From positions 7,762,962 through 7,826,961 of the forward strand of contig NC_134034.1 of the NCBI RefSeq assembly GCF_964204645.1: 64,000 nt of DNA. Direction: 5' to 3'. The notes beneath the pieces were generated by a model. It saw only the letters and a list, made by a program, of their open reading frames with translations. It was not told the DNA's origin and did no database searches. The position numbers and the translations under genes were made by a program. The DNA comes from Tubulanus polymorphus (Eukaryota > Animalia > Nemertea). Of this stretch, positions 5,971 to 64,000 are shown piece after piece (positions within the stretch are counted from its first letter, which is position 1; every line of letters begins with the position of its first letter).

Positions 5971-6258
5971 CCCTTTCAGTGCGTCTACACCGCAGTGCGG
6001 TGTATGAATCGGTGATGGATTTTGCTAGTACAACGCACCGCGGTGTATTGATGTAATTAGCAATTAGTTTTTATCTCTATTCAAAGATGGCAGCACTTGT
6101 CAAACATGGTGAAATATTAGTAACTAACGATATACTACGCCACGGTGCATACACACTATAGTGGTATTCCCGTTATTCAACACACTAAGGTGGAATTTTT
6201 CAAAATTTTCATATTATCTCCTGCACTATAGGGTATTGTTTACTCAGCACTGAAAGGG
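5971..6258. mobile_element. piggyBac-like MITE (copy 1)
   Basis: CCCTTTCAGTGC...GCACTGAAAGGG TIRs; reverse-oriented homolog of 9925-10212; flanking TTAA degenerate. Confidence 0.75.
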
Positions 6259-6559
6259 TTGAAAAGGGCATATTTTGTGCACAGGCTCGGGGTGTAATGT
6301 TTAAAAGGACACTTACACTATTTCAAAAAGGGCCATTTCCACCTGATTTATGTTGAAAAGGGCATTTTTACCGGTCAATTTGAATGAAAGGACATAGTAA
6401 TGGGCCCTATATAATTTAGCACTTGTTCAATTTTGAATATTTTGTTTTTCTTATCCAATTTTAGTAACCAAAAGAAAGATCACGATAGTAACAAGCTTAG
6501 AATTATACAGCAGCCATGTAAGGTTTGTTTTGATTATTGTATACTCATAACTGTACAAC

Positions 6560-9924: not shown

Positions 9925-10212
9925 CCCTTTCAGTGCTGACTAATTAATACCCTATAGTGCTGGAGAAAATTTGAAAATTCTAAAAAATTCCACCCTAGTG
10001 TGTTGAACAATGGGAATACCACTATAGTGCGTATACACCGCAGTGCGGTGTATCGTTAGTTACTAGTATTTCACTATGTTTGACACTTTCTGCCATTTTT
10101 CAATAGAGATAATTACAAATAACTAATTACATCAATACACCGCAGTGCGGTGTACTAGCAAAATCCATCACTGATTTATACACCACACTGCGGTGTAGAC
10201 GCACTGAAAGGG
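9925..10212. mobile_element. piggyBac-like MITE (copy 2) inserted in the left arm of the foldback element
   Basis: Perfect TTAA TSD and CCC...GGG termini; the opposite arm shows the empty single TTAA site near 12904. Confidence 0.85.
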
Positions 10213-10879
10213 TTAAAAGAATATAAAAGTGTGAGTAAAGTGTGAGTGAAATAACTCATATTTAAGAAAATTTACGAGTAATTAACGAGTTGATTAAAAT
10301 TAGATTTTTTGAACATAAAATTGTGAGTAAAGTGTGAGTGAAATAGTTTATATTTTAGATATTTCAATATTCATATTTGCATGAGTAAGATTTTTAAATG
10401 TTAAAAGTGTGAGTAAAGTGTGAGGGAAATAATTCATATTTTTACATTGAATATTTATATTTGAATGAGTTAGATTTATTTTAATAAAAGTTTTGTTATA
10501 AAAATGAAGAAAGAAGAAGAAGAACCTAAATTCAAAATCGAAATCAATGAAACCAATAAATTATTTTCACAGTTTAACATTAAAAATTATGTTTCAGCAA
10601 CAAATTTAGTGTATGCAAGACAATGTAAAATTGTCTAGTACATACATATATAAATTAGTTTTATAATAATTATAAATATAAATTATTAATCTAAGTATAG
10701 AAATTTAAGAGAAAACATATAATTTATTCATTTTTATATATTTCAATTAATACGTATTAATACATATTTAATACCATTAATACCTAAACCCCCTTTATAA
10801 CATAAATATAATTTACACAATATTTCATACATTTCAGCACATATATTTTATATTTTCACCTAATTTAACAGTCTAATTC

Positions 10880-11185
10880 TCAATTTGAATTATATAATTT
10901 ATCATTTAATTCATGAATATATCTGTGAGTTTTTAAACTTTTATCATTTTTATACGTTTTATTACATATTTCACAGCAATTAATATTATTAATTCTATCT
11001 GAAATATAATTGATATTATCTTTTAATTCAGCGTATCTAATTTTGCAATTATCATAAAATTCATATAACTCTTTCAAACTATAAACTGAAAATGAAGCTA
11101 ATCCTGAAATCATAATAATTGATTTAATATTCTGTTGATTTCTGTAAATAAGGTGTAATATTTCTAATACCTTACTTTCACTCAT
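10880..11185 (-). CDS. Small protein with hydrophobic segment and C2H2 zinc finger (foldback element ORF-C)
   Basis: Intact 101-aa ORF with CEICNKTYKNDKSLKTHRYIH (CxxC-x12-H-x3-H) and AAAAATG start context. Confidence 0.65.
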   Translation of the reverse strand: MSESKVLEILHLIYRNQQNIKSIIMISGLASFSVYSLKELYEFYDNCKIRYAELKDNINYISDRINNINCCEICNKTYKNDKSLKTHRYIHELNDKLYNSN

Positions 11186-11249
11186 TTTTATAGTTAAAAT
11201 ATATAAAATAGATTAAATTAAAAGATGCTGTCTTAATCCTCTAAATCAT

Positions 11250-11455
11250 TTTCTAAATTTACTTTTTTTGTTTTTATTCTTATTATCTTTATGATTTCCA
11301 TTTAACTTCTTCAATTTCTTATTCAATTTCATATTTTCATTCATCAAATCCTAACTGATATTTTCATAGTAAAAGTACAATGCGGCCAATATTAAACCTT
11401 CAGCAACTAGAAAATGTTTCAAATCACTACTTCCGGTTGGAATGAAACTATCCAT
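11250..11455 (-). pseudogene. Small single-TM protein ORF-B (MDSFIPTGSSDLKHFLVAEGLILAALYFYYENIS*)
   Basis: Homologous at protein level to the + strand ORF at 63247 (MDGFIPTGKSDIKHYLLAGGLILAALYFYYESISK). Confidence 0.6.
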
Positions 11456-11669
11456 TCATTTAAGAAAAAAAATTAAAAAATATTTAATATTTTATAATCA
11501 TTTTTGGAAATATTAAACTTTAAAATGATTAAATCAAATAACAATTAAACTTACTGTCTAACAGTTAATCATTAACTAATTTACAAATATTAAACTATTA
11601 TATATTTGAAACATACAGCTTAATCTTATTTCAATATATAATATTATTCTTTCCATAATTGATATGTTT

Positions 11670-12083
11670 AACCCTTTAACTGGCAATCGGTCGCTAGCGA
11701 CCGATTTGAATAGACCAGCTATAGTGAATAGAATAGTCAAGTATTGATTTCAGTGAAGCATTCTACTTCATTTTCCTATCAGCAGATGGCGACACCAGAC
11801 GGCCTACAATGTCTTACAAGGTTGGAAAGTGATATATCTTACATTTGGCATGTAGAAGGGGGTATGGAAACCACGTGTCATGTGGGTCAGATATCCAAAA
11901 TTGAGAATATCATTAGTAGTAATGGCCAATGCACTAAATACGTTCTCTAATGAGTTTGGCTGATATTTTGGACATAGTAATGAAAGATTCTGATGATAAT
12001 TCATATTGGGATGAATCTCATGACAGTTTTTTATTATGGGTGGCCCAAAAATCTGGATGACCTTGGGATCTGTGACCTTGATA
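11670..12083. mobile_element. Truncated piggyBac-like insertion within the foldback element
   Basis: Begins TTAA-CCCTTTAACTGG; higher GC than its flanks; interrupts ORF-A. Confidence 0.45.
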
Positions 12084-12636
12084 TTTACCACCACAATAAC
12101 AATGCACTTTCTCATTAGGATTGAAGTTTTTTAAATTCATCATCGAAATTACATCGAATTCCAATATCCTTATAAAAATTGTTATTAACTGATTCACATT
12201 GAATTCAAATATTTGATGAAGTTTCATTATAGATAATTTGTTTATTATCAAAATTGAAATAATATAATTGTCGTTTTTCAATGCTTAAGTTAATCAAATC
12301 ATTGTAACCTTTAGACAGTATTAAATCGCCATCTCTTTCATTAAAAGGAGTTTCAAGAATATCTATTATGTTTTTATCTAAATTACCTTTACAATTTAAA
12401 ACTGCATTAAATATTTTAGGATTTTTGATCCCATTATCAAAAGAATCTACTAGTTCATTAATTAAATATGTTTCATTTGATAATATAAGATTAATGACAG
12501 TTATATTATCAATTTTATATTGTCTTGCATACACTAAATTTGTAGCTGTAATAAGATTTTAAATGTTAAACTGTGAAAATGATTTATTGGTTTCATTAAT
12601 TTCGATTTTGAATTTAGGTGCTTCTTCTTTCTTCAT
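12084..12636 (-). pseudogene. Foldback element ORF-A, unknown protein ending in a CxCGGKY zinc finger
   Basis: Disrupted frame; homologous to 61403-61925 (+), 63360-63608 (-) and 10504-10632 (+). Cut at CYCGGKY by an insertion. Confidence 0.6.
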
Positions 12637-13106
12637 TTTTATAACAAAACTTTTTTAAAAATAAATCTAACTCATTCAAATATAAATATTCAATATTAAA
12701 ATATGAATTATTTCACTCACACTTTTAATGTTTAAAAATCTAACTCATACAAATATAAATATCAAAATATGTTTAAAATATAAATTATTTCACTCATACT
12801 TTACTCACAATTTTATGTTTCAAAAATATAATTCTAATCAACTCGTTAATTACTCGTTACTTTTCTAAAATATGAGTTATTTCACTCACACTTTTATATT
12901 CTTTTAATTATCCATTTATTTTACTTATATTTTTTTCGAAGTCTGTTAAAATATGAATTATTTCTCACACTTTACTCACACTTTTATAATTAATATATAA
13001 TTCATTTTAAAATAAATGAAATTCATGTAAATAATGTTCATTTATATGAAATTATTAGAAGTAATTGGGAAAGTGTTGGTTCAGGTCAAAGGTTGAGAGG
13101 GAGAGT

Positions 13107-13440
13107 GAGCGGAACAATGGGAAAACATGCGGATGCGATGACCAATCAGATTGTTTGTTGTATAATCCTGAGGTAAATTTCACTGAAGAACTATAAATGG
13201 GAAAACCCGGGCTAAAAATAAAACGGGATATCTGATTGGCTGATGACATCATCTAAGCTGTGCACTCGGTCTTATTTTGCAGGGCTTCGTACTGTGGCAA
13301 TCTCGATGCGATCAGGTTCGAATCCCTGCCAGGGGAGGATGGCTTTTCATGGATTTCCAGGAAAGGTGACTCGCTGCACACATTTAACACGCTGGATTCT
13401 TCTTTTGCAATGATTGGCAGACAAAAAATTACCAAAGATT
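13107..13440. repeat. Partial copy of the palindromic tRNA-box-containing element at 39580-39925
   Basis: Reverse-complement similarity to 39500-39800; GGTTCGAATCC B-box. Confidence 0.65.
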
Positions 13441-25920: not shown

Positions 25921-26767
25921 AAACTTAATTTACTCATAACGAGCCTTTCAAATGTCATGAGTTACAATTTTGTAATAGATTTTGGTAAAAAAATATGCCT
26001 AGGTGACAATGAAATCAGAAAATACTAAGTTATTTGGCGATTCAATGCCTCCTTGTGACCATATACAAGAACCAATGACATTCAACATCACCGCAATTGT
26101 AGAATATGCCATGAGGCCATCCCAAATTAATTTGCCACAACACCGACAAAAGTTTTCAGGATGAATCGGTAGGTAAGGAGAAATTTTTTTGGCAAAATTT
26201 TAGGACAAAAAAAATTTATCACATTTTTTATATAAAAACAATATCACAAATTTGCGTTGTGCACCGGAAATTTGTCTAATTTGCCTATATTTCAAGAATA
26301 ATTGTAAAATTCTTACTTCGTCCGGAGCGTCATCTCTGTGTTCAAAATGAAACAGTACATTAAATATAGGCACGCTATAACATTTATCAGCTTCTATAGT
26401 CACTAACTAGAGGACCAAAGGTCCTGTGCTCTCGAGGTACTGTCTATTATTAAATCAATGAAACATATTACATTGTTCATTCTACTAATCTTATAATTAT
26501 GCAGTATCTTTTCGCTTTAACAACTGCCTTGGGCACTACGGTGAGACTGGACGCCACAGACAGTGGTAGACAGGAACAAATACGTCAGATCGATTTGTTT
26601 TACCTTAAACTTTAGAGTGAGATATGGCCGGTTATAGTACAAAAAGATCAACAGACCAATGTGTATCACTTTCAAAGACTTGTTAATAATAATTGGACTG
26701 ATGATAACTTAAATGAAAATCTATGATTAAGTTAAGTTCATTCAAAAAAACTTATTTCACTGTATAA

Positions 26768-28027
26768 ACTAGGGGTCCAGGGACACGATGCCCACTTGGG
26801 AAGTGGTTTCAAATGCTCAACAATCTAACAATTTCAATATTCAACGCCCCCTGGTGACCATATACAGAATCCAATGACCTTGAAACTCACCAAAATCATA
26901 GAACATGTCAGCAGCTACGATTTTGTAATTGATTGTGATAACAAAATATGCCTCGTTACCAATTTAATATGGAAATACTAAGTCATTCTACTATTCAACG
27001 CCCCCTGGTGACCATATTCAAAACCCAATGACCTCGAAACTCACCACAATCATAGAATATGTCACGAACTACAACTTTGCAATTGATCATGGTAACAAAA
27101 TATGCCTAGGTACCAATATAATAAGGAAATACTAAGTTATTCTACTATTCAACGCCCCCTGGTGACCATATAGAAAAACTTATGTCCTTAAAACTCGCAA
27201 CAATCATAGATGATGTCATGAGCTACAACTTTCCAATTGATTGTGGTTACAAAATAGGCATTGATACGAATGTAATAAAGAAATGCTAAGATATTGTATT
27301 ATTCAACGCCCCCTGGTGGCCATATACGAAATCCAATTACCTTGAAACTCACCACAATCATAGAACACGTTATGAGCTACAACTTTCTAATTGATTGTGG
27401 TGGCAAAATACGCTTAGGTATCAATATAATGTGGAAAAACTTTTTCCAACTTACGAATGAGTACTGGTGACACCAAGATGGCCGCCAATTGCGTCATAAT
27501 TGGCTGATTAAAAATACCTGTCTCAGGTATAAAACATCCCTTTCCAAAGAATACCCATCACAAATTGTAATGAGAAATGGCAAACCAGTAGGAAGCTACA
27601 GGACTCAGAATTCGTGCCAAAATTAACATTTTTGGGCACTAAAAAGGTCATTGGACGGCCATCTTGAGTCCGACCGACCCAATTTTTGTTATGTTGATGG
27701 GCCCTGGGGGGATTCACATATATCCGAAAGATCAAGGTAATTGATCGAAGCGTCTTCAAAATTTCCCTCAAAAAGTTCAAAAATGTGTAAAAAGTGCTGA
27801 TTTTGGTGAACAACAATGGCTGCCAGTCTTGATTCTGACAGGGCCAGTTTTCGGGCTGAAGATGTGTCTAGGGTAGATACATGTGTAACCCAAATATCAA
27901 GACATTACCTTGGAGCGTCTTCAAAACTTCCCAAAATAACTGGATTCCGTCTACGGACGGACGGACGGACGGACGACGGACGAAAAGTGAACGCAATAGC
28001 CCGCTGGGACTAAAAAGTGGGCTAAAA
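26768..28027 (+). mobile_element. Helentron/DINE-1-like non-autonomous element with ~158-bp internal tandem repeats
   Basis: Starts AACTAG; ~4 tandem units (TTCAACGCCCCCTGGTGACC); (GACG)n microsatellite and a small hairpin before the A-rich end. Near-identical copy at 46661-47780, partial copy at 45389-45870. Confidence 0.7.
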
Positions 28028-28699: not shown

Positions 28700-29743
28700 G
28701 AACATAGCAATTTGTGACTATAGTACAGCATATTTCTACATCGTGGAGCAGAGAGCATTCATCATCATTTAAGTCATTCCCTCTTTGTGAAAACCACGCG
28801 GAGGGGATTACTGATATAGACCTCGCAGATATTTCTGTGGGTAGAGATATTTTTATCCAGTACTGGACCATAAAAGCGTCCTGAAACCGTAAACTTGTTC
28901 GTGATTCCCAGCACAGCCTGCGCCAGTGTAATAGTAGTGTGTGCTGCATACATACAGTCAGTCAGTATGTTGTACATACTACAGCGATGTGGGTCACTGG
29001 GGAAAGCCAGTACTATATGCAGTGGAAAGCGCGTATCTCTTTAGTCTTACTAGGTATTGAATTCGCAGAAATAGCGTCACTTGGCAGAATAAAAGGCTCT
29101 CAGATAATCAATGCAGATCAGGTCAGTGCATTGAACCATGGTCACACAACTTCCAATAATCGGTACATAAACAATGTACTTAATGCCTTCTCTACAGGTA
29201 TGATAATAGGAAGTGTCATTGATGGTCGATATGTCAAACATACATCATCGAACAAAAACTGCATTCTCAATGTCACCACTGATGAGTTAAGAGCTACACC
29301 TACTGAAGTCGAGGCCAATAATATTACCGACTCCGTGATAACCATGGAGAATTTCTTTAAAACATGATGAAGAGTGTCCCCGAATTCTTGAAACACGTAT
29401 CGACAAAAACAATGCATTGTGGCTTAAATATCATCATTCATCCAAATGGCTTTCTATGGACGATAGGGATCTAGATTCACTATCAGAATATTACAACATG
29501 GTTCTAAATAAAGCAAACTTAGCTGCTGCTACAATGGATTTCGAGGATTCAATCAGGCATGGTTCACGACATAACCGCTTTATTAATGGAAATCCGATTA
29601 AGACTCGCCTCGATGAAAACGAGGTGTTAGAATATTTTGTATTCCATAGCCGTTATGAGCCCCCTAGATGGTATAAATGGCATGAAGTTATGCCAGGAAA
29701 GCAGGGCCTTTATGCCGAACGTTTATTAAGGAAATATGTTTAA
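28700..29743 (+). pseudogene. Intronless unknown protein, frameshifted, with C-terminal chromodomain-like segments
   Basis: Adjacent ORFs 28939-29367 and 29417-29743; RLDENEVLEYFVFHSRYEPPRWYKWHEV resembles a chromo fold pattern. Confidence 0.4.
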
Positions 29744-30425: not shown

Positions 30426-30773
30426 ATAAATCCACGTTTTAAAGGCACTGTCGAGCCGTAAACATCGGAAATTTGGCTCCGTTCAATTAGTAGCCATGTT
30501 GTGTTTTCTTTCCGACATTTCTCTCTTCTTTTCGAGGAAGAGCTATCGAATTATCCCTCTCTCCTCCACAATCAATTTCAAAGTCAATTTTATGAATTTA
30601 TTGCTCAGCGGGTCCGAGTCCAAGAGTTAACGGCGTTCGCGTCCGGCGTTCGCGTGTCTGACAGGTTTACGGGCATTTGTTTGTTACCTCTTTAATATTT
30701 TTGATTTCTTGTTATTCCGGTTATTTCATTTAAGTATATTGCTGATCAGTTCATGTAACCAAAAGCGTCAATA

Positions 30774-33700
30774 TGTATGGAACCAGGAACGTTGAGCGAA
30801 GAGAGCAAAAGAGGAACACATGCGTTTAGTAAGATGACTATCGAGTGTACTGATTTATTTACTGAGACGGATATACAGATGGTTGATTACAATATAGGTC
30901 ATTAACAGAGTTCAAGTATAGGATAGATACAATTCCTAACACTCCGGCCCCAGGAAATAATGGTTACATAAATTCGACACATTACAGAAAAATGATATTT
31001 AAACGCAAACTACTAAATATTAATGAACAAACTACATTACCTAGATTGCTTATGATTGTAGAACATATTGTCATTACGTTGTGGTTTATAGATTGAATAG
31101 ATATTAGAATTATTGTAAGCTAAGAATCAAAGTCACGTAGTTCAAAAGTAAGATAAGCTTTGGAAACATTAAACTAAACTATGAATATATATTTCGTTAT
31201 ACAATCAACGTGTCGTGAGAATTCAATCAGAGTAGATCATTATTTAGTACATATCAATCATTTTAAGTTCAATTCAGCAGACCAATCTTTGATGCAACGT
31301 TTCGCTTGAACGGCTGCGTTTCTCGTTCGGCACGGGTTGAACGGTATTTCATTCGAATTGTCCTTATCGGTATTTGTCGCGTTGTCACATCGCGATTCGG
31401 TATCGCACGTTTCGGGATCACAATTGATTTCTAACGGATACAACTTCATTATAGGTCGATTTGTCATACCGTTCTTTGTTTTGATCATCGCAGATCGTAC
31501 AAGTCCATCGGAGCCGCGATTTATATCGGTAACCAAAGCAAGGTTCCAGTTCGCTCGTTTAGTTTCGTCGGAGTGAACCATGACAACGTCTCCGATTCTA
31601 ATTTTATTCTCGGTGTGTCCCTTTTTACAGTTATTCGCATGTGATTCGCGTAATGCTGGTAGGTATTCGTCTCTCCAACGCTTTTCACATGTTTTGAAAA
31701 GATTATCCAAATACACAGATCTTTTCTGAAAATCGGATCTTTCACGCGGTATGTAATTCGGATCGATCAGTTCTTCTTCGCAGACAAATGCGTGCGGGAG
31801 TGAAGTTAGTCTTCTACCGTTTATTAGGTGAGATGGTGTCAAGGGCTCCAATTCGTTTACGTCGGACGACACATATGTTAGCGGGCAGTCATTAACGGCT
31901 GCTTCGACTTCCGTAAGCAGGGTGTTCAATTCGTCGGCCGTTACGGATGTTCGTCCTAGCGTCTTCTTGATCGCATTTTTTGTGACGCCAATTAGTCGTT
32001 CGTAGAATCCCCCGAACCATGGGGCGCGTTTGGGAATAAATTGCCATTCCACGTATTTCGAGAGGAAATCTTTTACGGTTTTCTCCTCCTGTAGTTTCGC
32101 GATAAAATCGGCGGCGTTTGTGAAGGTTGACCCATTGCCCGATATCATTAATCGCGGTAATGATCTCCTGCTAGCGAACCTACGAAAGGCGCGAATGAAT
32201 GATTCGGTTTTCATGTCTAAAACCAATTCCAAGTGTACCGCCCTGGTAATAGCGCACGTGAACAAACAAACATAGGCTTTATTATCGCGCGCCGTAGCTG
32301 ACCTATAATAGAGAGCACCGGTGAAATCGACACCAGTTACAGCGAATGGTTCCTTATGATCCACGTGGCTGACTGGTAACGGCGGAGTTAGAGGCGGAGC
32401 GTACGGTTTCCCGCCGTTTTTTAAGCAAATCACACTTTTTCGGATCACCGAATTTACGGCCTGACGAATACGCGGTATCCAGTGTGTTTGACGGATGAAC
32501 GATATCGTAGATGACGCTCCGGAGTGAAGGTTCAACACGTGTGCGTTCTGAATCATCAATCTAGTATACAGATGTTTGATGGGGAGAAGAATCAGGTATT
32601 TCGCGCCATATTTGATACTCGCATTTTGTAACCGCCCACCGCATCGAATGACACCGTTGTCAGTCACGAATAAGTTTAATTGGCGTGCTAAACCAATCTT
32701 ACGTTTATTGTACGAGGCCATGATTCCCGGAAATTCGTTATCTTGCAGATTTCGAATCCACGCTTGTTCTGCTAGACGCAAGTCCGGTACCGAAATGTGA
32801 CGGGTACTTTTATTCCCTTTGAGTCGCGTTATAAATTTCATGACGAGAGCGGTAACGCGTAACAATCTTGGTAGCGTCGCGAATTCGGCGATTTCGATTA
32901 TGTTATGTAATCCGCATATGTCTGTGATTGCAGTAGTGCAAACGAGTTGCGGCTCGTCGTAGGTGAGCTCGTTGACATGCGTAATAGGCTCATCAAACAT
33001 TTCGCATACTGGCCAATCGCCGTTCGGAAGCCAATGTGGACCGTTCCACCACAGATCCGAATTTTGAAGTTCGGTCGCTTTTACTCCACGTGTGAGTAAA
33101 TCGGCTGGGTTGTCTTTCGTGTAACAATACTTGATATCGTCGAAATCTCTCATTCGAATTTCCTTTACGCGGTTTTCAACAAATACGGGTAGCTTTTTCT
33201 GACTTCTAATCCAGTGAATAACAATTTGACTGTCAGACCATAGGATGGTCTTCACAATCTGAGATTTCGTCAGCGAATCCACGATAAATTTCGATAGTCG
33301 CGTCGCATTGAGAGCTGCCATGAGCTCCATTCGTGGTAACGTGATCTCTTTTAACGGTTTCACTCGCGACTAAGCCATAACAACTGATACGTTATTATCG
33401 GAAATGCGTTTCAGATAGGCAACAGCACCGTACGCAACAGTGCTTGCATCGGCAAACATATGCAATTCGCAATTATCGCATATTCCGGTATCGAAATATT
33501 TCCGCTTGTAAGATATATCCCTAGCGTTTTTGAGTTCGGGATATATATTTCTCCATTCGTTCGCGAGATTTTCGGGCAAACGTTCATCCCAGTTCAATTT
33601 TCCGAGCCATAGCTTTTGAATGAACGTTTTCGCGCGTATGTGTACGGGTGAGAGTAACCCGAGCGGATCGTATAGATCAGACGTAGATCTCACTACTTCG

Positions 33701-36700
33701 CGTTTCGTTAGTAGTGGCTCAGAGTTATCAGATTTCGACTTCTTGTATGTCAACGAATCTTCTACAGTATCCCATACCAAGCCGACAACGTTGACAGATG
33801 CTTCCCGGTCGTGTCGATTGTCTTGTTGCATGACTGCTCTGAGTTGGGGGTTGTTGGTCGACGACGATCTGAGTAAAAACCCGCCCTTCTCCATCATCCG
33901 GTTCACCTATTGTAGAATGTGACAGCTTGATCTTCTATTACAGTTAGATGTTATCGACATAAATGTTCTCCATAATGTTTTCTGCTACCGGACACGATTC
34001 GTTCTCAAGGTGTGTTTTGATAGCGGCGTTGAGGATGAACGGTGAACTGACTGACCCAAACAACACTGACTAATATTGATACACCTTGAACTGACTTTCT
34101 CGGTCCTTTGGGTCAGAAAGCCACAGAAATTTGGTGTATTTTCGATCTTTTTCCTCGAGTCGTACATTCAGAAAGGCTTTTTCGATATCACTGCTGATTG
34201 CAATGGTATTGAGTCAGAATCGTAGAAGAATCTGAACGAGATCGTTGATTAACGGTTCTCCGGCTTCCAGGCAATCATTGAGGCTGGGATTCCCTCTTAC
34301 ATTGAAGCTACAATCATAGACAATTCTTATGGGTGTTTTTTGCGAATCTTTCTTTACTGCCTGATGAGGGATGTAGTGGCCTGTATTCGGGTCGTCGTCT
34401 GGTATCTCTTCGATAAAGTCTCTTGCACACTGCTCTCGAATAATGTTGTCATAATGCTCTAGTAAATCTGATGATAGGTTGTGTATCATCGCGCGTGTTC
34501 GTCTCTTGCATACACTGTAATTTGACGGAAGTGCTTCGTGATCACCTTTCCACGGTAGAGCCGCCACGTATCTTCCATCTCCATCCCGACGAAGTTTTTC
34601 GGAACGATAATTGAGATACGATGTAGGTTTCGAGTCGTTTTCGTCCTTTATCCCTATTGTCTCGAGGTCCCAGTAGCGAGATAGGTTTTCCTCTTCGTGA
34701 ACAGGGCTCGTTAGAAGCTTAAAGCAAGTGGTCATCACCGTCGTTGATGGGAAATCTGTTGGTCCTGACAGGAGATAACCCAATTTTGAGGCAACAGCTG
34801 TGGGGCCCTGTCCTCTGATGACCTTATCTTTGACTACAGACCAGTAATGGTCTGCACCTATCAGGAGGTCAATTTCAAACGAATCGGTTGTAGCGTACGG
34901 GGCCAACTCAATTTTCTGCAGATAATCATAATTCGTTGCTGCCTTGTATACATAGTTTTTCATCGGTGTTGAGATCTTGATGGCTCCCGATGGCGTTTGT
35001 AGTTTTAGGTCAGTCACCCCAACTGATTGGATGCCAGATGTGTTGGCGCCAAATGCCGAAACGCATATAGTTTCCCGGTCGATGAGATTTAGGTCGATCG
35101 GAAGTCTTCTAGCGGCATCGTGAGAGATAAAAGAACGCTGCGCTCCCTCGTCGAAAAGAATGTTTACGACAGTGGATCCGGAGTTTGCCGAAATTGAACC
35201 CACAGCTGTTTTCAATATGACTGTTCCAGATGTTGGTGTCAATTTGGCCTCTACGATGGTGGGATTTTGCTTCACTGACCAGTTCCCATGGCCTTCTCTC
35301 TCAGTGCAAAGTAGTGTGTGGTGTCGCCGATTGCATATTCTGCAAGTCCACCTTGAGTTGCAATTACTAACTTTGTGGGTTCCAAGACAATTAAAACATA
35401 GTCTGTTTTTTCGGACAATTTCTTCTCGCTTTTCTGGCGACGTGACGACGGTGCATTCAATAGGTGTGTGGTTTCCTCTACAAAATTGACATTTTCTGAT
35501 TGGTCGGTCACCTGGTCGTTCGCGTCGTTCGGGGTGTTGATTCCGAGTGATGAATGCTGATACAGATGGTAATTCATATACACTGGTAGGCCTATCTGAC
35601 GATTCCGCTTCTGAGGCTTCTATTTCTTTCTTCAGAGCCTGTCGAAGCGTAGTGAGCGTCCAGTCTGTGTTGCCATTCCCACGAGTAAGCTGTTTCCTTA
35701 CTGATCCGGGTATTTTTTCAAGTATAATTGGGACGAGAAGATCACCATACCCGTCTTCTGTCTTCCCTAGAACATTCAAACCACAAATGTAACTTTCTGA
35801 ATTATCCGAGAATATTTTCAATTGAGTGATGTTTTCTCCTGGTTTAGGGAGCTCCCATAAAGCTTTCATGTATGAACTTCCGATTTTTTGTGTCTGGCCA
35901 TATCGTGTCGTGAGCAGCTCTAACGCGTTGAGATAATTTGCATCGGTTAGAGCTAACCCTTCGATCGTACGCGATGCCTCTCCGGTTACTAATCCTCTGA
36001 GGTACTGAAACTTGACGACATTATCGAGATGTTGATCGTTATGGATAGCTGAGTTGAAACTGTCCATGAAACCTTGCCAAGTGAGTATATCACCGTCAAA
36101 CTTAGCGAGGGTGAGTTTGGGCAAGTTTAGCGTCTTGGATGTCCATTGGGTGGTGGAGATTTCACTTACATTAAATGTTGATGTATCGGCGCCTGGAGAG
36201 GTTTCAATCCGTTTCCGTTCGAGAAACTTTTTTAATTTTTCATTTTTGCTGATAATGTCCGTACTATAGTCGTCGGCTTCGATTATCGCTCGTTCTAGAT
36301 CATTATCCTCAGTCATTTCGATTATGCCGTTATCTAATTGTTGAATGTTGCGTAACTTGGTCGTGATTACTTCGATTTTGGTTTCCAATTCGTCGAGGTC
36401 TTCCCCTGAAATTGTGGGCTTTTCGAGTACCGCCTCAGCCCCGGAGACAGCCTTGGTAGGGTCCTCTTGATTTTCTCTGTCTTTCGATTGTACATGTATT
36501 CGTTTGCGGGTCTGCAGTTGTAGCCATCCTGGTCACGGCACCAAAATGTATGGAACCAGGAACGTTGAGCGAAGAGAGCAAAAGAGGAACACGTGCGTTT
36601 AGTAAGATGACTATCGAGTGTACTGATTTATTTACTGAGACGGATATACAGATGGTTGATTACAATATAGGTCATTAACAGAGTTCAAGTATAGGATAGA

Positions 36701-36714
36701 TACAATTCCTGACA
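30774..36714 (-). mobile_element. Full-length BEL/Pao LTR retrotransposon
   Basis: 168-bp LTRs (30774-30941, 36547-36714; 2 differences seen), CAATA TSD (30769-30773, 36715-36719), PBS TGGTGCCGTGACCAGG, PPT GGGGCCGGAG. Confidence 0.97.
31258..36530 (-). pseudogene. BEL/Pao gag-pol polyprotein (DUF1759, CCHC knuckles, protease, RT, RNase H, integrase), disrupted
   Basis: LPKLTLAKFDG, CFNCLGTH, LFDEGAQRSF, RIVYD, DIEKAF, LHMFADAS, PRMELMAA, GVDFTG, PWFGGFYERL; stops at 34214 and 33370, frameshifts near 33900-34170. Confidence 0.93.
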
Positions 36715-36997
36715 CAATAAACAGAGTTTGAATTTATCAAGTTTAGATAAAGGTCGTTGAGTCGCGTAGGGCTACTAGAATTACGTTCGTCTCATAGAGG
36801 AAACAAATTATCGATAGCCTACTACGGTACACACAGTTGACAAACAGTGTTAGGCCTGTGCCGGTTGGTGCGCACTCGGACTAAATATACTGGTTGGCCA
36901 GTTGGTTCGGTTGTGAAATGTGGAAGCTAAGAAAGCCTACCGTTATTTATTTGTCTATAGGCCTATTAAAGTAGCCAATACCATTTGAATTACGAAA

Positions 36998-39579: not shown

Positions 39580-39925
39580 TACCATCCTCCCCCGGCAGGG
39601 ATTCGAACCTGATGGCATCGAGATTGTCACGGCACGAAACCCTGCCATAATCGACCGTGTGCGCAGATACATGCGCAGTTCAGATGATGTGATTTTTAGC
39701 CAATCAGAAATCCCGTTTTATTTTAGCCCGGGTTTTCCCATTTATAGTTCTTCCTTAAAATTTGCCTCAACGATTATACAACGAGCAATCTGATTGGTGC
39801 CGCCAGTTTTCGTTCGGAAACCTGCGCATGTACCTGCGCACCCGGTCTACTGATGCAGGGGTTCGTGCCGTGGCTGAGTGTAGCGATGCCATCAGGTTCA
39901 AGTCCCTGCAGAGGGAGGATGGAAA
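39580..39925. repeat. Palindromic element with two outward-facing tRNA-like (A/B box) arms
   Basis: Arms ~39580-39680 and ~39820-39925 are inverted. The right arm has TGGCTGAGTG and GGTTCAAGTCC; the left arm has GGATTCGAACC. Confidence 0.6.
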
Positions 39926-41514: not shown

Positions 41515-43320
41515 CAAGTATAGGTCTGCATATGTTTTTGATTTAAATTCTTAATAACTTTAGAGTGGAATAGTGGCTCCTGCAGTATTTTGTAAGTTTT
41601 TGCGAGTCCTATAACTCTTTCCACATGGATTCTTTTGGAGGCAATTCTGCGGTCACGTATAACTTCTTCAGGAGCTAGCTGGGTTTCCCTTGTAGAAACG
41701 TAGGGATATTACAGTGAACATCAATAGGAGCAAACAAATCTTGACAGTTTAACCCACCGTCGGCCATAAAACTATCGCCGGGCTGAAACATCTTTTCCTC
41801 CTTAGATACAAGAGAACGCTCTAAAATTTGTCTATCCCTGGTTGATCCTCCATAACAGGGGCTAACATATGAGAGAGTGCCACGCGGAGAAATACCAATC
41901 ATAGACTTCAATGTATTCTTGTTCTTATAGGTAGAGAATGTAGCAGACTGGGCCTTAACATTCATAGGCCTATGAATCGGAATTTCTGTCGCATCTAAAA
42001 TAACCCTTGTTGTAGGAAATCTTTTCCCAAAATTGACAGGCATATACAAATCTATTAGGTCTTTATCGGGCCAAGTATTTATTTCACTCAGCTGGAAATA
42101 TAAGAAATTAATCCAGACATTAACAACATTTGACACTAGACTTTCACTGATATTGAAGAACAAAGCCAGTTCATAGTCATCTTTTGCCTGACTCAATTTT
42201 ATACAAGTGAGAAAGAATTTATCTTCCGGTCCGAGTGGAGTGGACCTCTCCTGCAACTGGTAAGCTGCGGGACCGAGCAAGTTAAAGACATACATAAAAT
42301 GTTCGTAATCATCAAATCCTGTATAGTAATGGATGGCATCCATATTGTCTTTGAAATTATGAATAGAGAATCTTGTCTCGAATTTCTTCATTAAAGTACA
42401 CTGAATACTACAGTCCATAGTTGTAGGTTCGGAATCCGGTGGTACTTCAGGTGTAGGCTGAGTGGTGACGACAGTTTCTTCGTGTTGGATAACAGACAAG
42501 TCAGGGAATGTTACTTTTCTTCGTTTGGCTGCCCTCTCTTCTCTAGCAATTTTTTCGGCACTTTCTAAATTCTTTTTGAAGACAAATATAGATAGTACAG
42601 CATCAGGTTTTAGTATTTTCTTTGCTCCTGAAAATATAAATGAGAGTGCATCATAATGCGATATCAATAAACTAGGCCTACTGTGTAACTCAAGGTAGGT
42701 AGCCCATACTAACTTATTTTTACACTTACACATCATACTAACTTATTTTTTTCTCATAATGGCAAATTAATAAATTTCATTGGCAAAAAATTACTATAGG
42801 CTTATTTTTACAAATATCATAACAAAGACATAGACATTACATTCACAGCACTTAATGCAGGGAGTATTGGAAAATTGCTGCTCCCTTCTTACTTACTTGT
42901 CAAGATTAAGCTATAGGCCTATATATAGGGCTGTCTCAACCAGCGATAGATTCAAAACAAGCTTCAAATTGGTTACAGCACATTTATGGTTTATTTGATT
43001 CCCTAATTTTCATTTACAACACTCACCTAACAAGCCAGGTTCCCTGTAATCAGATGCGTTGAAATGGTTGAGACACACAACACTGTATTTACCAGGCTGC
43101 TAAGTTTTTTTATCTTTTCATCCAGTCTTTTGATTGCTATAAGCCACTTCATACACAATTGATGATCCGATGGGAATTTATGCCCTCTTTTGTGGTTATT
43201 ACAATTCGGTACAACACAATAAAACGGCATTATGTCAATAACATGAACCCGGAAGTAAAACGATGAATACTTCTGTCACCTCTCGTTACACGCGCGCCAT
43301 CTGGCATTCAACTATATGGC
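41515..43320 (-). mobile_element. ISL2EU/PIF-Harbinger-group DNA transposon: spliced THAP-HTH-DDE_Tnp_4 transposase, 3'-truncated
   Basis: THAP exon 43230-43027 (CVVPNC...HKFP...W), GTGAGT donor, acceptor at 42628. Exon 2 has ILDATE, FSTYK, YGGSTRD, MADGG; RIHVER follows a frameshift. Confidence 0.85.
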
Positions 43321-46560: not shown

Positions 46561-46660
46561 TTGTAGTTTTTGATATCCCTAAAGTGAAACTAAATTCAAT
46601 TCAAAACAAATCAATAAAGTCCTGGCTTCCAAGTATAAATCATCAAAAATATAACGTAAA

Positions 46661-47780
46661 AACTAGGGGTCCAGGGACACCATGCCCACTTGGGAAGTGG
46701 TTTCAAATGCTCAACAATCTAACAATTTCAACATTCAACGCCCCCTGGTGACCATTTACAAAAACCAATGACCTTGAAACTCACCACAATCATAGAACAT
46801 GTCAGCAGCTAGGATTTTGTAATTGATTGTGATAACAAAATATGCCTCGTTACCAATTTAATATGGAAATACTAAGTCATTCTACTATTCAACGCCCCCT
46901 GGTGACCATATTCAAAACCCAAAGACCTCGAAACTCACCACAATCATAGAACATGTCATGACCTACAACTTTTGCAATTGATCATGGTAACAAAATATGC
47001 CTAGGTACCAATATAATAAGGAAATACTAAGTTATTCTACTATTCAACGCCCCCTGGTGACCATATAGAAAAACTTATGTCCTTAAAACTCGCAAAAATC
47101 AAAGATGATGTCATGAGCTACAACTTTCCTATTGATTGTGGTTACAAAATATGCATAGGTACGAATATAATAAAGAAATGCTAAGATATTGTATCATTCA
47201 ACGCCCCCTGGTGGCCATATACGAAATCCAATTACCTTGAAACTCACCACAATCATAGAACACGTTATGAGCTACAACTTTCTAATTGATTGTGGTATCA
47301 AAATATGATTAGGTATCAATATAATGTGGAAAAAATTTTCCCACTTACGAATGAGTACTGGTGACACCAAGATGGCCGCCAATTGCGTCATAATTGGCTG
47401 ATGAAAAATACCTGTCTCAGGTATAAAACATCCCTTTCCAAAGAATACCCATCACAAATTGTAATGAGAAATGGCAGTAGGAAGCTACAGGACTCATCTT
47501 GAGTCCGACCGACCGACCCAATTTTTGTTATGTTGATGGGCCCTGGGGGGATTCACATATATCCGAAAGATCAAGGTAATTGATCAAAGCGTCTTCAAAA
47601 TTTCCCTCAAAAAGTTCAAAAATGTGTTGTAAAAAGTGCTGATTTTGGCGAACAACAATGGCTGCCAGTCGGCCATCTTGATTCTGACAGGGCCAGTTTT
47701 TGGGCTGAAGATGTGTCTAGGGTAGATACATGTGTAACCCAAATATCAAGACGTTACCTTGAAGCGTCATCAAAACTTTG
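46661..47780 (+). mobile_element. Second copy of the tandem-repeat Helentron-like element
   Basis: Colinear, high identity to 26768-27920. Confidence 0.75.
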
Positions 47781-57485: not shown

Positions 57486-59233
57486 AACCGTCAGAGTGTT
57501 AGGATCATTTCGCGCAAGTGAGTCAATTGTTGCGTTCAGAAGTCTTCCTTCAACGTCCAAGCCGATATCATCGAATCACGGAGGTACATGTGAAATAACA
57601 ATTTTCGAGTCCGGATATCTGTTTTTTTTGTACAATTCACTAGATCTATCATTTTACCTATGCATGTTTCTGCATTTCCATATAGATCCAACATGATAGA
57701 CAATGGTCGACGGATTTCTTTCACGGCACGATTTTATTGTATCGACAGCTTCTGGGATAGTGTACGTCTGGAGCTTTCGGACTACACACGGTTTAACGAA
57801 GACCTCAGGATCAAAATACCTAAGGTTAGAGTCTCCAATTACTATGACCTCGCCTTTTTTCATTGATGCCGTCGTGGCTATCAGGTGTACGTAACCTTCG
57901 CATATAGTTATTTGACCCCCTCTCAGGTTTTGGTGATTCAGAGGGTTCTGGTGAGTCAGTGGGGGAGAGAGATGAGCGGTTGCGGACTGGTCGCTCCTGC
58001 GTTTTCATCGGCTGGCTCTCTCTCTTGCACAGAAACGCTGCTCAGGGTTTTCACATCTCTTAATAGGCAGTCGTTCTCAGACTGAGTATCTCTGACTGCG
58101 TTAACGGTTTTTTGTACATTCTGTATTTTGCTGTCGGTTCTATCAGAGATTTTGCGAATAGCGCTAACATTTTGTTCGATTGAGCCTAGTTTATCACATA
58201 ACTCAAAAACGTTATCCGTGCGTTTTTGTACACAATCTATCTTCTGTGTCACTGCTTTCAGGTCCTCTTTTTGCGCACAACGGTCAACCTGTTGTGTCAG
58301 TTTAACTATAGATGATTGAATGTTCTTAAGTATCGCTTCAAGTTCATCACTACCGACGAATTGGGGGGGGGGGGGGGGTCTGGCAGTGAATCGAAACTTT
58401 GCTTGATTTTGGTGCCTCAGGCTGAACACGTTCGTCACTGTTGCAGCCACACGGCGATTGTGTAGAGACAGCAACTTTTTCTTTCGCTATAGTCTCGGTT
58501 TCTAGCGGAGGTTTTATACACGGTGGGCAGAGATAGAGTTCATTGACATTTGCTTTCGCTTTGTTCAGATCGCACCGATTGAGTTGACTGCACTCGTAGT
58601 GCGTCCAGCTATCACAGAGAGAACAGGCAATCATTTCGCTGGTATCTTTTTCGTTGCAGCCAGTACACGATGATTTGCCCGATGGCAGTTGGCTGAGAGA
58701 GCTGGTGCTTGTTAAACGTTTGCTGTGAATTGTACCCAACATTTTGGGGAAAACATCCGCAAGCCATAGCAGATACGAGCTGCCGTGTATATGGAGCTTA
58801 GCTGATTTCTTATTGGAACCTTTCGTACAGAGTAGCATGGACTGACCTGAGTACAGTGCCATTATCGTCTGAATACGAGCCGGTGAATTGCAGTCCATAG
58901 CATCCTCGGTCAATAGGATCATCGTACAATTGTTGAAGGTGTTTATTGTAAGCTAATATTTTGTCTTTTTCGATCTCGATGACGATTGAATTCGTTTTTT
59001 CGTTTATCTTCGGTTGTGCTGTGTTTAACGGTTGATTTTCTTTTCAGTATAGCGGCACGTAACTTTGTGTAGGCACTGTTCAGTTTTTGAAACTGTTGAG
59101 TGGAATTGTCATTACCATTTTTATCAGGGTGCTGTTGTTTTGCCAGCAAAATGAATCTAGATCGAAGTTCATCGAGCCCCGAGGGCAGCACTTTCAACAA
59201 TGCATGCAATTCCTTCGTACTGGGCGCCGCCAT
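57486..59233 (-). pseudogene. LINE-type ORF1: DnaJ domain + TBP-like domain + PHD finger + coiled coil + SGNH esterase-like, frameshifted
   Basis: LAKQQHPDKN...FQKLNSAYTKL; VHATLY...KLHIHG..YLLW; C4HC3 CTGC..CSLCDSWTHYEC..CPPC; heptads; VIGDSN, YHVGS, VISHVPP. Confidence 0.75.
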
Positions 59234-59534
59234 CTTGGATTTTCTTTGTTTGGCCGTCGGAATGATTTTTCGGTATTTCGACGGGTTTTAAACGGTAGTG
59301 TTTCAATCACTTACTGATTTGTGTCACTTATTATTGCTTTCGGTAATTCCTGAAATAATTTGTACTTTCACACGCCCATTCTGGACAGATTTCGTTGATT
59401 TTCAGTGTTTTTATCGGAGCTTTTAAATCTACCACCACCTGCAAGCAGCGCCACTTGTGACATGATTACTAGAAACTATATAATTTTACAGCATAAACCC
59501 ATCAGATTTCATTCAAAATTCCTTTAATTCTATC

Positions 59535-60405
59535 TTAAGCAATTTTGGCTGCTGTCCTTTCAACTCGATTGATTGTGTTTTGATTATCAGAATTTGTTGA
59601 GTGCTCTACATCTGCTATATGCATCTCTAGTGGACACAGCTTTGACAGAGGTCTGTTAGTTATGCCACTAGATGTTTTGATTATAAAAGATCTAATGTAA
59701 TTATCATGGCTAGTTATAACGTGAATTATTATCCCCATGCGCCATTTGTTACGTGGAGATTCATCACAAATTAGTACCACAGAACCCGTTTTGATCAATT
59801 TTTCATTTTTCCCGTGAGAAAAATGACTTTCTCTCAGACTGACCAGATACTCCTTACTCCATCTTGACCAAAATGGTTCTTTAATCTTACAAAGAAATCT
59901 ATATCGTTTTGTTAAGTTTGATTCCGATGCATCAAACTCGGGATCATCGAAATCGTAGTCAAGGTTTGGTATAGACGAGATTCGTCGCCCACATAACAAA
60001 TAAGAGGGAGTAAGAGTTACATCGTCCAGATCTGATGAGACGTATAATAACGGACGGTTATTTAGAACACATTCTACCTCAGTAACGACTATACTTAATT
60101 CTTCATATGATAATAATGCTTTTCCCATGACTTTTTTGAGAGCGGTTTTTGTTAGTCCGATTAATCGTTCCCAAAACCCTCCGTGCCAAGGAGCTCGCTT
60201 TGTAATAAATTTCCATTCGATTCTTTTGCTTGTAAGATAATTGGATAAGAATTTTGCAACAGCAACAAAATTCGAAGCGTTATCTGAAATAATCTTCCTT
60301 GGCACGGAGCGCCGGGCCACAAACTTACGAAAGGCATAAAGAAAATCTTCCGCAGAATTTGATTTTACAAGTTTTCAAATGAACTGCTCTCGTAACTGAG
60401 CATGT
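59535..60405 (-). mobile_element. BEL/Pao integrase fragment (different family from the 30.8-kb element)
   Basis: IISDNASNF, APWHGGFWERL, LNNRPL, W.RWSKEYL, RPLSKLCPLE. Confidence 0.9.
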
Positions 60406-61099
60406 AAGTAATTGGAAAATGTGGGTTTCATACCAGAGTACGAGAGTACGACACACCACTCATCACCACAAGTAATTTTTCCCCATAATAAATGGGAGAT
60501 AGAAAAGCATTCTTAGCAACAATAAATAACAAAAGAAAACAGATAAAATTTCAGCAAATTGAAGTTACTGTAATGTTAGTATAACGCGAGAATTTAAAGT
60601 ATTTTACCCGATAAATTGGTTGCATTGAGTAAAGAGGAATTAAAAGATTTAGAGGGATTTAAAATAATTTACCATGGGAAAAATGAAGACGGGCATCATG
60701 ATTTAGAAGTTGTTGATTAAAAAATAAGAAATAAAATAATTAAAAAAATTTAAAAAAAATGAATATCAAGAATCCGAAATTACTTATCTGGACAATTCAA
60801 TTGCTCCGCGTAGATAGACAAAAGTAGTGAGATATTCAATTAATTAAAATAAATTTTTATATTTTTTGCTTTTTTTCTAAAATATTTATTCATTATTTTT
60901 ATGGTGAATTTTGGAATTTCAGAAGTATTTTCATTTTTAATAGCAGTAGTTTCAGAATTATTGATATCATAAATTTTATTTGATTTTTTATATCAACTAC
61001 ACCCAATCAAAATGAATACAACTACAAATCCAGTTGTAAAATATGAATATCTATCAAATATTCTATTATCAGAAGGAGTAGAAATAACAATATTTTCAT

Positions 61100-61352
61100 T
61101 AAAAGTGTGAGTAAAGTGTGAGTAAAATAATTTCGATTTTCAATATTAAAAGTGTGAGTAAAATAATTTCGATTTTCAATATTAAAAGTGTGAGTAAAGT
61201 GTGAGTAAAATAATTTAGATTTTCAATATCAAAAGTTTGAGTAAAATAATTTAGATTTTCAATATTAAAAGTGTGAGTAAAGTGTGAGTAAAATAATTTA
61301 GATTTTCAATATTAAAAGTGTGAGTAAAGTGTGAGAAAAATAATTTAGATTT
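61100..61352. repeat. Iteron-like 35/47-bp tandem repeat with AAAGTGTGAGTA core
   Basis: About six tandem units; mirrored at 63660-63755; dispersed versions in both arms of copy 1. Confidence 0.85.
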
Positions 61353-61974
61353 TAAGATAAATAATCTAGAAAATTCATTTTATTAAAAACTTTGCAGTAT
61401 AAATGAAAGAAGAAATTGAATTTAAAATTGAAATAAAAGAATTTAATGAATTATTTTCACTATTTAACATTAAAAATTATATCTCAGCAAAAAATTTAGT
61501 GTATGCCAAGACAATATAAAATTGATAGTATTACTGTAATTAATCAAATATTATTAAATGAAACATATTTGATTACTGAACTTATCGATATTATTATAAT
61601 TTTATTCTTATTTTAATTTTGATAATAAACAAATTATTTATAATGAAAATTCAACAAATATTGGAATTCAATGTGATTTAGAAAGCAATAATTCTTTTAA
61701 AGATATTGCAATTAAATGTGATTTAGAAAATAATGAATCTTTTAGAGATATTGGAATTCAATGTAATTTAGATAATGAATTAAAAAGATTTAATCCTATG
61801 AAATGAAAAATGAAAAAATTCATTGTTATTGCGGAGGTAAATATCTAAAATCACATAAATCAAAGCATTATCAAACAATTAAACATAAAAACTGTGAAAA
61901 GAGTAACAATTCTACATTTAAATAAATAAAGTAGTCAAATAATTATTGAATTAAGTTAAATGATTTAAATATCT

Positions 61975-63125
61975 AATAGACTGTCAAAATGATAAATTGT
62001 TAGACTGTTAAAATGATAAATTGTTAGACTGTTAAAATGATAAATTGTTTGACTGTTGAAATGTTAAATTGTTTGACTGTTAAAATTATAAATTGTAAGA
62101 CTGTTAAAATGTTAAATTGTTAGACTGTTAAAATGATAAATTGATTGACTGTTGAAATGTTAAATTGTGAGACTGTTGAAAAGTTAAATTGTTAGACTGT
62201 TAAAATGATAAATTGTTAGACTGTTAAAATGATAAATTGTTTGACTGTTGAAATGTTAAATTGTTAGACTGTTAAAATGTTAAATTGTTAGACTGTTAAA
62301 CTGTTAAATTTTTAGACTGTTAAAATGTTAAATTGTTAGACTGTTGAAATGTTAAATTGTAAGACTGTTAAAATGATAAATTGTTAGACTTTTAAACTGT
62401 TAGACTGTTAAACTGTCAAATTGTTAGACTGTTAAAATGATAAATTGTTAAACTGTTAAAATGATAAATTGTTACACTGTCAAATGATAAATTGTTAGAC
62501 TGTTAAATTGTTAGACTGTTAAAATGATAAATTGTTAGACTGTTAAACTGTTAAATTGTAAGACTGTTAAAATGATAAATTGTTAGACTTTTAAACTGTT
62601 AGACTGTTAAACTGTCAAATTGTTAGACTGTTAAAATGATAAATTGTTAAACTGTTAAAATGATAAATTGTTACACTGTCAAAATGATAAATTGTTAGAC
62701 TGTTAAATTGTTAGACTGTTAAAATGATAAATTGTTACACTGTCAAAATGATAAATTGTTAGACTGTTAAATTGTTTGACTGTTAAAATGTTAAATTGTT
62801 AGACTGTTAAAATGATAAATTGTTAGATTGTTAGACTGTGAAAATGATAAATTGTTGGACTGTTAAACTGTTAAATTGTTAGACTGTTAAAATGTTAAAT
62901 TGTTAGACTGTTAAAATGTTAAATTGTTAGACTGTTAAAATGATAAATTGTTAGATTGTCAAAATGATAAATTGTTAGACAGTTAAAATTGTAAATTGTT
63001 AGACTGTTAAAATGTTAAATTGTTAGACTGTTGAAATGATAAATTGTTAAGACTGTTAAAATGTTAAATTGCTAGACTGTTGAAATGTTAAATTGTTAGA
63101 CTGTTGAAATGTTAAATTGTTTGGC
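61975..63125. repeat. Minisatellite, 24-bp unit TTAGACTG-TTAAAATG-ATAAATTG (three 8-mers)
   Basis: ~1.15-kb array with 16/24-bp variants. Confidence 0.92.
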
Positions 63126-63736
63126 TGTAAATTCAATTGTTATTTGATATAATCATTTAAAAGTTTGATGTTTTTCAAATGATTATAGCATATTAAATTA
63201 AAAACTAGCTAATATTCATAATTTTTTTAATTTTTTCCGTAAATAAATGGATGGTTTCATTCCAACTGGAAAAAGTGATATAAAACATTATTTACTTGCT
63301 GGAGGTTTAATATTGGCTGCGCTATACTTTTATTATGAAAGTATCAGTAAGGATTTGATAATATTTTTTTATGTTTTCATCTAAATTACCTTTTCAATTT
63401 AAAACTTTAAATTATCTAAAGTATCGATAAGTTCAGTAATGAAATATGTTTCATTTAATAATATTTGATTAATTACAGTATTATTATCAATTTTATATTG
63501 TCTTGCATACACTAAATTTTTTGCTGAGATATAATTCTTAATGTTAAATAGTGAATAAAATTCATTAAATTCTTTTATTTCAATTTTCAATTCAATTTCT
63601 TCTTTCATTTATACAGCCAAATTTTTAATAAAATGTATTTTCTAGGTTATTTATATCTTAAAATCGAAATTATTTTACTCACACTTTACTCACACTTTTA
63701 ATATTGAAAATCTAAATTATTTTACTCACACTTTAC

Positions 63737-63946
63737 TCACACTTTTAATATTGAAAATATTGTTATTTCTACTCCTTCTGATAATATAATATTTGATAAA
63801 TATTCATATCTTACAACTGGATTTGTAGTTGTATTCATTTTGATTGGGTGTAGTTGGTATAAAAAATCAAATAAAATTTTTGATATTAATAATTCTGAAA
63901 CTACTGCTATTAAAAATGAAAATACTTCTGAAATTCCAAAATTCAC
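63737..63946 (-). CDS. Small hydrophobic ORF-F of the foldback element (inverted twin at 60901-61110 +, which has a stop)
   Basis: NFGISEVFSFLIAVVSELLISKILFDFLYQ present in both arms; the minus copy lacks the ATG seen in the plus copy. Confidence 0.4.
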   Translation of the reverse strand: MNFGISEVFSFLIAVVSELLISKILFDFLYQLHPIKMNTTTNPVVRYEYLSNIILSEGVEITIFSILKV

Positions 63947-64000
63947 AATAAGAAAAATGGATTAATATTTTAGAAAAAAAGCAAAATAAATAATTTTTTT

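Follow-up and report, generated by a model that had tools for sequence, protein, structure and literature searches.

Two AT-rich elements in the window (the whole 64,000 nt stretch of DNA analysed) represent a family that is real, foldback-shaped, furnished with orphan genes and unclassified, and that is probably abundant. It behaves as a non-autonomous element dependent on a putative helper, and fits no family tested. The two elements are likely to be the leftover folded-back ends of a larger virus-like mobile element. Their features are listed in Table 1, together with other features of the window.

The GC content is 21.1% in element 1 and 21.7% in element 2, against 38.0% in the rest of the window, and the BLASTN blocks that the elements share are 69-83% identical. 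This bears out the initial annotation, in which they were described as diverged relatives, more AT-rich than their flanks. With 38% GC and debris of BEL/Pao, hAT and DDE_Tnp_4 elements, the window otherwise resembles animal nuclear DNA; the host may be a marine invertebrate.

Table 1. Positions of the two elements, their parts and other features of the window
Feature	Position	Strand	Remarks
Element 1	9682-~13105		Both ends visible; sits in host inverted-repeat element
Element 1 left arm	9725-10633	+	Repeats and 5' ORF-A copy (10504-10638)
Element 1 right arm	12510-13105	-	Lacks the 40-nt extension that closes the left-tip hairpin
Terminal hairpin	9685-9767		Element 1 left end only; 27-bp arms, 29-nt loop, z -8.74
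Mini-ORFs	9789-9854, 12976-13041		21 codons, TATAAATG start; both element 1 arms
MITE insertion	9923-10213		Element 1 left arm only; later event; TTAA-flanked, CCC...GGG ends
ORF-C	10880-11185	-	Element 1 only; intact, 101 aa; weak hydrophobic stretch, C2H2-like finger
ORF-B, element 1	11246-11455	-	69 codons, one internal stop
Second, higher-GC insertion	11668-12075		Element 1; begins TTAACCC; takes the place of the ORF-A end
ORF-A, element 1 (longest copy)	12076-12636	-	173 codons in one frame, two internal stops
Element 2	60407-64000		Right end beyond window; sits in decayed BEL/Pao integrase
Element 2 left terminal motif	60407-60440	+	Resembles element 1 terminal motif
ORF-D	60492-60720	+	Element 2 only; about 75 codons, frame break
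Element 2 left arm	60857-61602	+	ORF-F region, repeats, 5' ORF-A
Subterminal repeats, 36/47 bp	61098-61353	+	AAAGTGTGAGT-bearing; TRF
ORF-A, element 2	61403-61925	+	Frame breaks ~61506 and ~61800; deletion ~61590-61608 relative to element 1
TTAGACTG minisatellite	61977-63128	+	24 bp x 49; element 2 only
ORF-B, element 2	63247-63368	+	Cut by fold-back junction after ~38 codons
ORF-A inverted 5' copy, element 2	63369-63608	-	69 open codons; begins right arm
Element 2 right arm	63409-63993	-	Extends to window end
ORF-F region	63708-63965	+ (as listed)	Element 2; 85 open codons on +, 74 on -; hydrophobic stretch
ACATG/CATGT	9677-9681, 60401-60406, 13125-13129		First two at left junctions; third 20 bp past best right junction of element 1
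Palindromic host MITE	39582-39906, 9600-13342		Empty at the first position; split by element 1 at the second
piggyBac-like MITE copies	5970-6260, 9923-10213		87.6% identical; CCC...GGG ends
hAT fragment	3-1075	+	Dimerisation domain
Dispersed element	26762-27929, 46656-47778, 25952-26115		Four 154-bp central repeats, HINE-like layout; unrelated to the family
Two overlapping open frames	28885-29743	+	160 and 133 aa; Pfam blank at E 0.1
BEL/Pao retrotransposon	31258-36532	-	Nearly full (gag, protease, RT remnant, integrase), few stops
Inverted near-identical pair, 174 bp	30769-30942, 36542-36715		Flanks the BEL/Pao retrotransposon
DDE_Tnp_4 (Harbinger-like) fragment	41675-42742	-	Transposase
Second BEL/Pao integrase	57956-60406	-	Decayed; host of element 2
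PHD-finger-like ORF	58350-58952		Beside decayed BEL/Pao
Coiled-coil-like ORF	57956-58486	+	Beside decayed BEL/Pao

Self-BLAST resolves a common unit with the order terminus, AAAGTGTGAGT repeats, ORF-A, spacer, ORF-B and further cargo. In element 1 the unit lies on the minus strand and runs from 13105 through ORF-A, ORF-B and ORF-C into an inverted 5' copy (10633-9725). In element 2 it lies on the plus strand, with ORF-D and the ORF-F region ahead of the repeats and the satellite in the spacer; it turns at about 63369, within ORF-B, and thereafter an inverted copy of the 5' unit continues past the window end. Both arms of each element are derived from the same unit end, and the fold-back point lies after ORF-C in element 1 and inside ORF-B in element 2. 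The order of repeats, ORF-A and ORF-B given in the initial annotation was recovered, but a TTAGACTG satellite common to both elements was not: the array is confined to element 2, and element 1 shows a single exact TTAGACTG and, at the corresponding position, a trace resembling a monomer. AAAGTGTGAG occurs 24 times in the window, each time within one of the two elements.

Long inverted arms are present in both elements. Over ungapped columns, identity is 97% in the outer and 92% in the inner parts of the element 1 arms; the arms of element 2 are 95% identical. An artefact of mirrored assembly was excluded because the arms are 3-8% apart and differ by indels, one arm alone carries a MITE, and independent contigs carry the family. 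The tips of element 1 are not inverted copies of one another, and at the left tip a 40-nt extension closes a 27-bp hairpin. The left end of element 2 folds no better than shuffled sequence (z -1.1) and has no significant hairpin; its likeness to the left terminus of element 1 gave a local score of 43, which was reached by 1 of 500 shuffles. The mini-ORFs of element 1 finish in KV-stop at the first repeat, and so does the ORF-F frame that points inward in element 2.

Element 2 splits the decayed BEL/Pao integrase, the frame of which, on the minus strand, reaches ~60407-60412. Element 1 splits a host inverted-repeat element, an empty paralogue of which is present elsewhere in the window. When all junction pairs were compared with this paralogue, the best-scoring models placed the right end at 13099-13110 with zero duplication, a soft test given that the paralogue is only 81-87% identical. 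The sole duplication of at least 5 bp, and a possible one at this site, is ACATG (5 bp); its junction falls outside the 25 best models. Element 1 lies in host DNA without a clean target-site duplication, and neither a duplication of 7-10 bp nor matching tips were found at this one old insertion. CATG flanks both left ends, and a CGGAAC-like sequence flanks the right end of element 1. The CATG may reflect a target preference, as judged from two insertions. A P-element-like reading of the junction CATG was rejected, since the empty site already has CATG and there is no 7-8-bp duplication outside.

The apparent lack of clear change at the element 1 target site also suits a non-autonomous Helentron (rolling-circle) derivative carrying virus-like ORFs and secondary inverted duplications. 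Taken on the minus strand, element 1 has subterminal motifs paired in inverted orientation and a stem-loop at its 3' terminus, and element 2 has a central tandem array; a duplication-free target, a stem-loop and a central array are HINE traits (PMC4067079). The Helentron derivatives HINE and DINE-1 resemble the family in these respects and in its apparently high copy number. However, the subTIRs of HINEs measure 12-15 bp, whereas the arms here are 600-900 bp long and the hairpin 27 bp, and HINEs insert in TT and have no coding capacity, whereas the present elements carry coding cargo and the flanks in view are not TT. No Rep-Helicase was found within the window. The fit, which comes from the apparently absent target-site duplication, the terminal hairpin and the central satellite, is partial, and such an origin is rather unlikely.

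The ORFs are intronless and tightly packed in these islands of 21-22% GC, as originally described. ORF-A is broken or shortened in all four of its pieces. In element 2 it combines GIQC-type repeats, possibly comparable to dynein-light-chain-binding motifs, with a C-terminal CxC...H...H finger, and the ending CYCGGKY...HKSKHYQTIKH, claimed for both copies, is present; in element 1 a frame break ahead of the finger follows the 173 codons, and the sequence ends after CYCGGKY at the insertion. ORF-C is intact, but the finger assigned to it is below the Pfam cut-offs (best E 1.7e-4), and the transmembrane segments proposed for ORF-B and ORF-C are borderline (best 19-residue Kyte-Doolittle means 1.2-1.4). 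As to the additions ascribed to element 2, ORF-D is present but broken, and ORF-F is open on both strands, the two frames sharing their third codon position and the longer having no ATG. The suggested WAAATG start context occurs at six of seven ORF-A, ORF-B and ORF-C starts and at that of ORF-D, yet also at 43 of the 167 ATGs in the elements. TATAA(A)ATG stands before ORF-A and also before ORF-C, which is unrelated to it (11 matches against 5.6 +/- 2.3 simulated, the arms not being independent).

Between the elements, ORF-A and ORF-B together (144 aligned codons, NG86) have a dS of 0.41 and a dN of 0.15, giving a dN/dS of 0.36 (bootstrap 0.21-0.62; Fisher p=0.0005), and 34 of 74 substitutions are at third positions (p=0.016). 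Because a high AT content may bias NG86, the DNA was also aligned without regard to frame and the substitutions were permuted with their types preserved; the residue is kept in 96 of 141 codons, against 87.9 +/- 3.2 expected (5000 permutations, p=0.008). The conservation of these two ORFs as proteins is confirmed, and the selection effect is real and moderate. Purifying selection on both preceded the decay of the copies. Arm-to-arm comparisons give a higher dN/dS of 0.59-0.89 on few changes (ORF-F, 0.89 on nine changes), as expected if decay after insertion was neutral.

Sequence of the family was found in contigs of three public runs, from one organism and one study; 500, 81 and 112 contigs, respectively, match 60900-61960. 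In run X1 the summed depth exceeds 9,000 in 17 of 30 bins (maximum 35,764), a measure that differs from copy number, and the best run is possibly the source of the window itself. Among the contigs listed, the eight longest have depths of 32-49 in this run. This suggests that related arms, whether integrated or free, number a few hundred. Many positions, including some around the frame breaks, distinguish other members from the window copy, and these members have an ORF-A segment that is absent from the left copy in element 2. They also show many more deletion joints, along with one joint at which the strand inverts.

Foldback elements, among which FB and the sea-urchin TU also count, provide another explanation: a non-autonomous cut-and-paste transposon (Mutator-like or P/Galileo-like) with arms lengthened by internal sequence, in which the 11-bp repeats would be transposase binding sites and the ORFs accessory or captured genes. 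Tetris and Galileo are likewise non-autonomous, with long modular arms containing tandem repeats and elongated with internal sequence, a variable middle and a role as satellite source. The description of foldback elements in PMC4079207 is matched by the long arms with tandem repeats, the middle that varies and the derived satellite, and Galileo TIRs are reported to have been extended by recruiting internal sequence (PMC3573991). The apparently high copy number and the greater likeness of the outer than of the inner arm parts in element 1 also favour a transposon of this kind. Against it, element 1 has asymmetric tips with a hairpin and no 7-10-bp duplication, the longest exact one being ACATG, and the base composition is strongly foreign. 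Furthermore, Tetris-type elements lack conserved ORFs, whereas here selected ORFs occupy both arms and middle. A foldback transposon is on balance somewhat unlikely. The statement in the initial annotation that the family matches no standard transposable element class was nevertheless too strong, as the shape fits foldback elements and, in part, Helentron derivatives.

ORF-A had no match at E<=0.001 among 1.84 billion representative proteins. Searched as 173 aa (stops as X) against proteins of 95-303 aa in the 90% collection, it gave 92 candidates, none at E<=1; ORF-C gave nine candidates among proteins of 55-177 aa and the 40-aa finger one among longer proteins (a weak test), none of which scored. 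There were no matches in PDB sequences or Rfam. The best PHROGs match for seven pieces (E 0.004) was to a family of unknown function, Pfam matches to the ORFs were sub-threshold, and the C-terminal 40 aa of ORF-D had no Pfam match. In viral contigs, DNA motif scans were blank, as were protein scans except for one finger-only match (L003): 19 residues of the ORF-C zinc finger match a gene of a giant-virus MAG, a generic likeness with an E of 3e-4 calculated over the candidates alone. Three motif matches (L001, L002 and L004), confined to the motif, were rejected as chance. A single ORF-A piece modelled with AlphaFold had a pLDDT of 34. These blank searches do not prove absence, because the collections are mostly microbial and the queries are decayed AT-rich pieces.

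No hallmark viral or transposase domain was detected in any ORF, and neither the elements nor their surroundings yielded a polymerase, integrase, capsid, ATPase, helicase or Rep. The domain and protein searches and the dN/dS of 0.36 support the original view of the family as non-autonomous, lacking any recognisable mobility gene and carrying small ORFs as selected cargo. The initial annotation had held a dN/dS near 1 and a lack of homologues to count against its reading; the ratio is well short of 1, and homologues were indeed lacking in the collections searched. DIRS-like retroelements comprise inverted terminal repeats and an internal complementary region, with a reverse transcriptase and a tyrosine recombinase; the termini here have no internal match by self-BLAST, and RT or YR domains are absent.

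That the elements are simply an end region of a canonical Maverick/Polinton, or the product of mirrored assembly, is very improbable. Mavericks, which are intronless, have TIRs and are known from marine invertebrates (PMC8097293), share with the family an integrated state, inverted termini, selected ORFs and genomic copies that are mostly decayed, as do adintovirus-type elements. The start of element 2 is possibly AGT, and the inspection covers one complete element only. However, the present elements measure 3.4-3.6+ kb, against ~17 kb, and have none of the eight core genes: neither the elements nor the long ORFs of the window yielded pPolB, an integrase, an ATPase, a protease or capsids, although a non-autonomous Maverick copy may lack them anyway. 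Element 1 also lacks the 6-bp duplication and the end motifs (AG)3, (AGT)2 and (AC)3A, a vertebrate set (PMC8097293), and the apparent copy number of the family is much higher.

The reading tentatively preferred, with a probability approaching even, is that an AT-rich, linear, virus-like replicon gave rise to the elements when one of its ends was copied back, and that these non-autonomous derivatives were moved in trans. It is prompted by the derivation of both ends from one terminus, the variable turning points, the hairpin, the foreign composition and the selected cargo. The putative parent would be a longer, gene-dense linear replicon that, like bidna-, adinto- and Polinton-like elements, replicated from its ends by strand displacement primed by a hairpin or a protein. 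One end could then be copied back through a template switch, yielding short molecules with two origins, for which polymerase and integration functions would be supplied in trans. The AAAGTGTGAGT repeats may be origin or binding sites, the parent would have carried ORF-A, ORF-B and ORF-C as accessory genes, and integration could occur by end joining or through a nuclease that leaves no regular duplication. The nested arm breakpoints, and the strand-inversion and deletion joints in other members, favour such copying back. The dense, intronless ORFs, the best-scoring junctions free of duplication, the TATAA(A)ATG common to ORF-A and ORF-C, and the form of Vesanto virus segments and transpovirons also count in favour of this reading. 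Against it, no viral hallmark gene was found in or next to the elements, the terminus of element 2 is not a hairpin, element 1 has no Maverick end motifs or 6-bp duplication, and copy number is apparently far above that usual for Mavericks (PMC8097293). Galileo, a cut-and-paste transposon, also elongates its arms with internal sequence (PMC3573991).

CxCG-type fingers were described in the initial annotation as typical of large DNA viruses. The putative 'endogenous viral or plasmid-like' nature proposed earlier was drawn from composition, gene density and shape, to which the searches added only the generic finger match. The link to viruses is one of style only, because no real relative of the ORFs was found in viral contigs, protein collections or the PDB. 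Segments of the Drosophila Vesanto virus, which is segmented and bidna-like, are 3.3-5.8 kb long with inverted terminal repeats (PMC8363768), and have related termini and differing cargo, some of it without known homologues. In contrast, the present elements are integrated and decayed, share ORF-A and ORF-B instead of forming distinct segments, and neither contains NS1, VP or PolB genes; no capsid segment was found. The transpovirons of mimiviruses are short, linear and helper-dependent, and encode small transmembrane and zinc-finger proteins between TIRs (PMC8877843). Transpovirons are associated with giant viruses and have a helicase, together with a core of conserved hypothetical and zinc-finger genes. 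Unlike them, the family has no helicase, no sequence homology was found, there are no relatives in viral contigs, and the context resembles animal nuclear DNA. Vesanto segments and transpovirons are analogies by likeness of form, not relatives. In passages of a study of adintovirus Ziftr zinc-finger genes and segmented bidna-class viruses (10.1101/2024.03.25.586562), nothing matched the family.

A rather unlikely extension would be that the elements preserve in the germline a lineage, so far undescribed, of linear viruses or plasmids with AT-rich DNA, whose short fold-back genomes, bearing orphan genes, were amplified to hundreds of copies with no transposase. Such an invertebrate lineage would possibly be segmented or satellite-like. 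No published description of the family was found in the mainly open literature searched, and a prior entry in a repeat library such as Repbase or Dfam is possible.

For an abundant-looking family that has selected orphan genes and inserts without a regular signature, an autonomous partner absent from current catalogues is to be expected. Once found, this partner would define either a new invertebrate virus-like class or foldback or Helentron elements able to keep orphan cargo. If the family is only a foldback derivative, it would be a modest addition to repeat libraries; if it does record an undescribed lineage, it would represent a way of invading genomes that none of the recognised orders of transposable elements covers.
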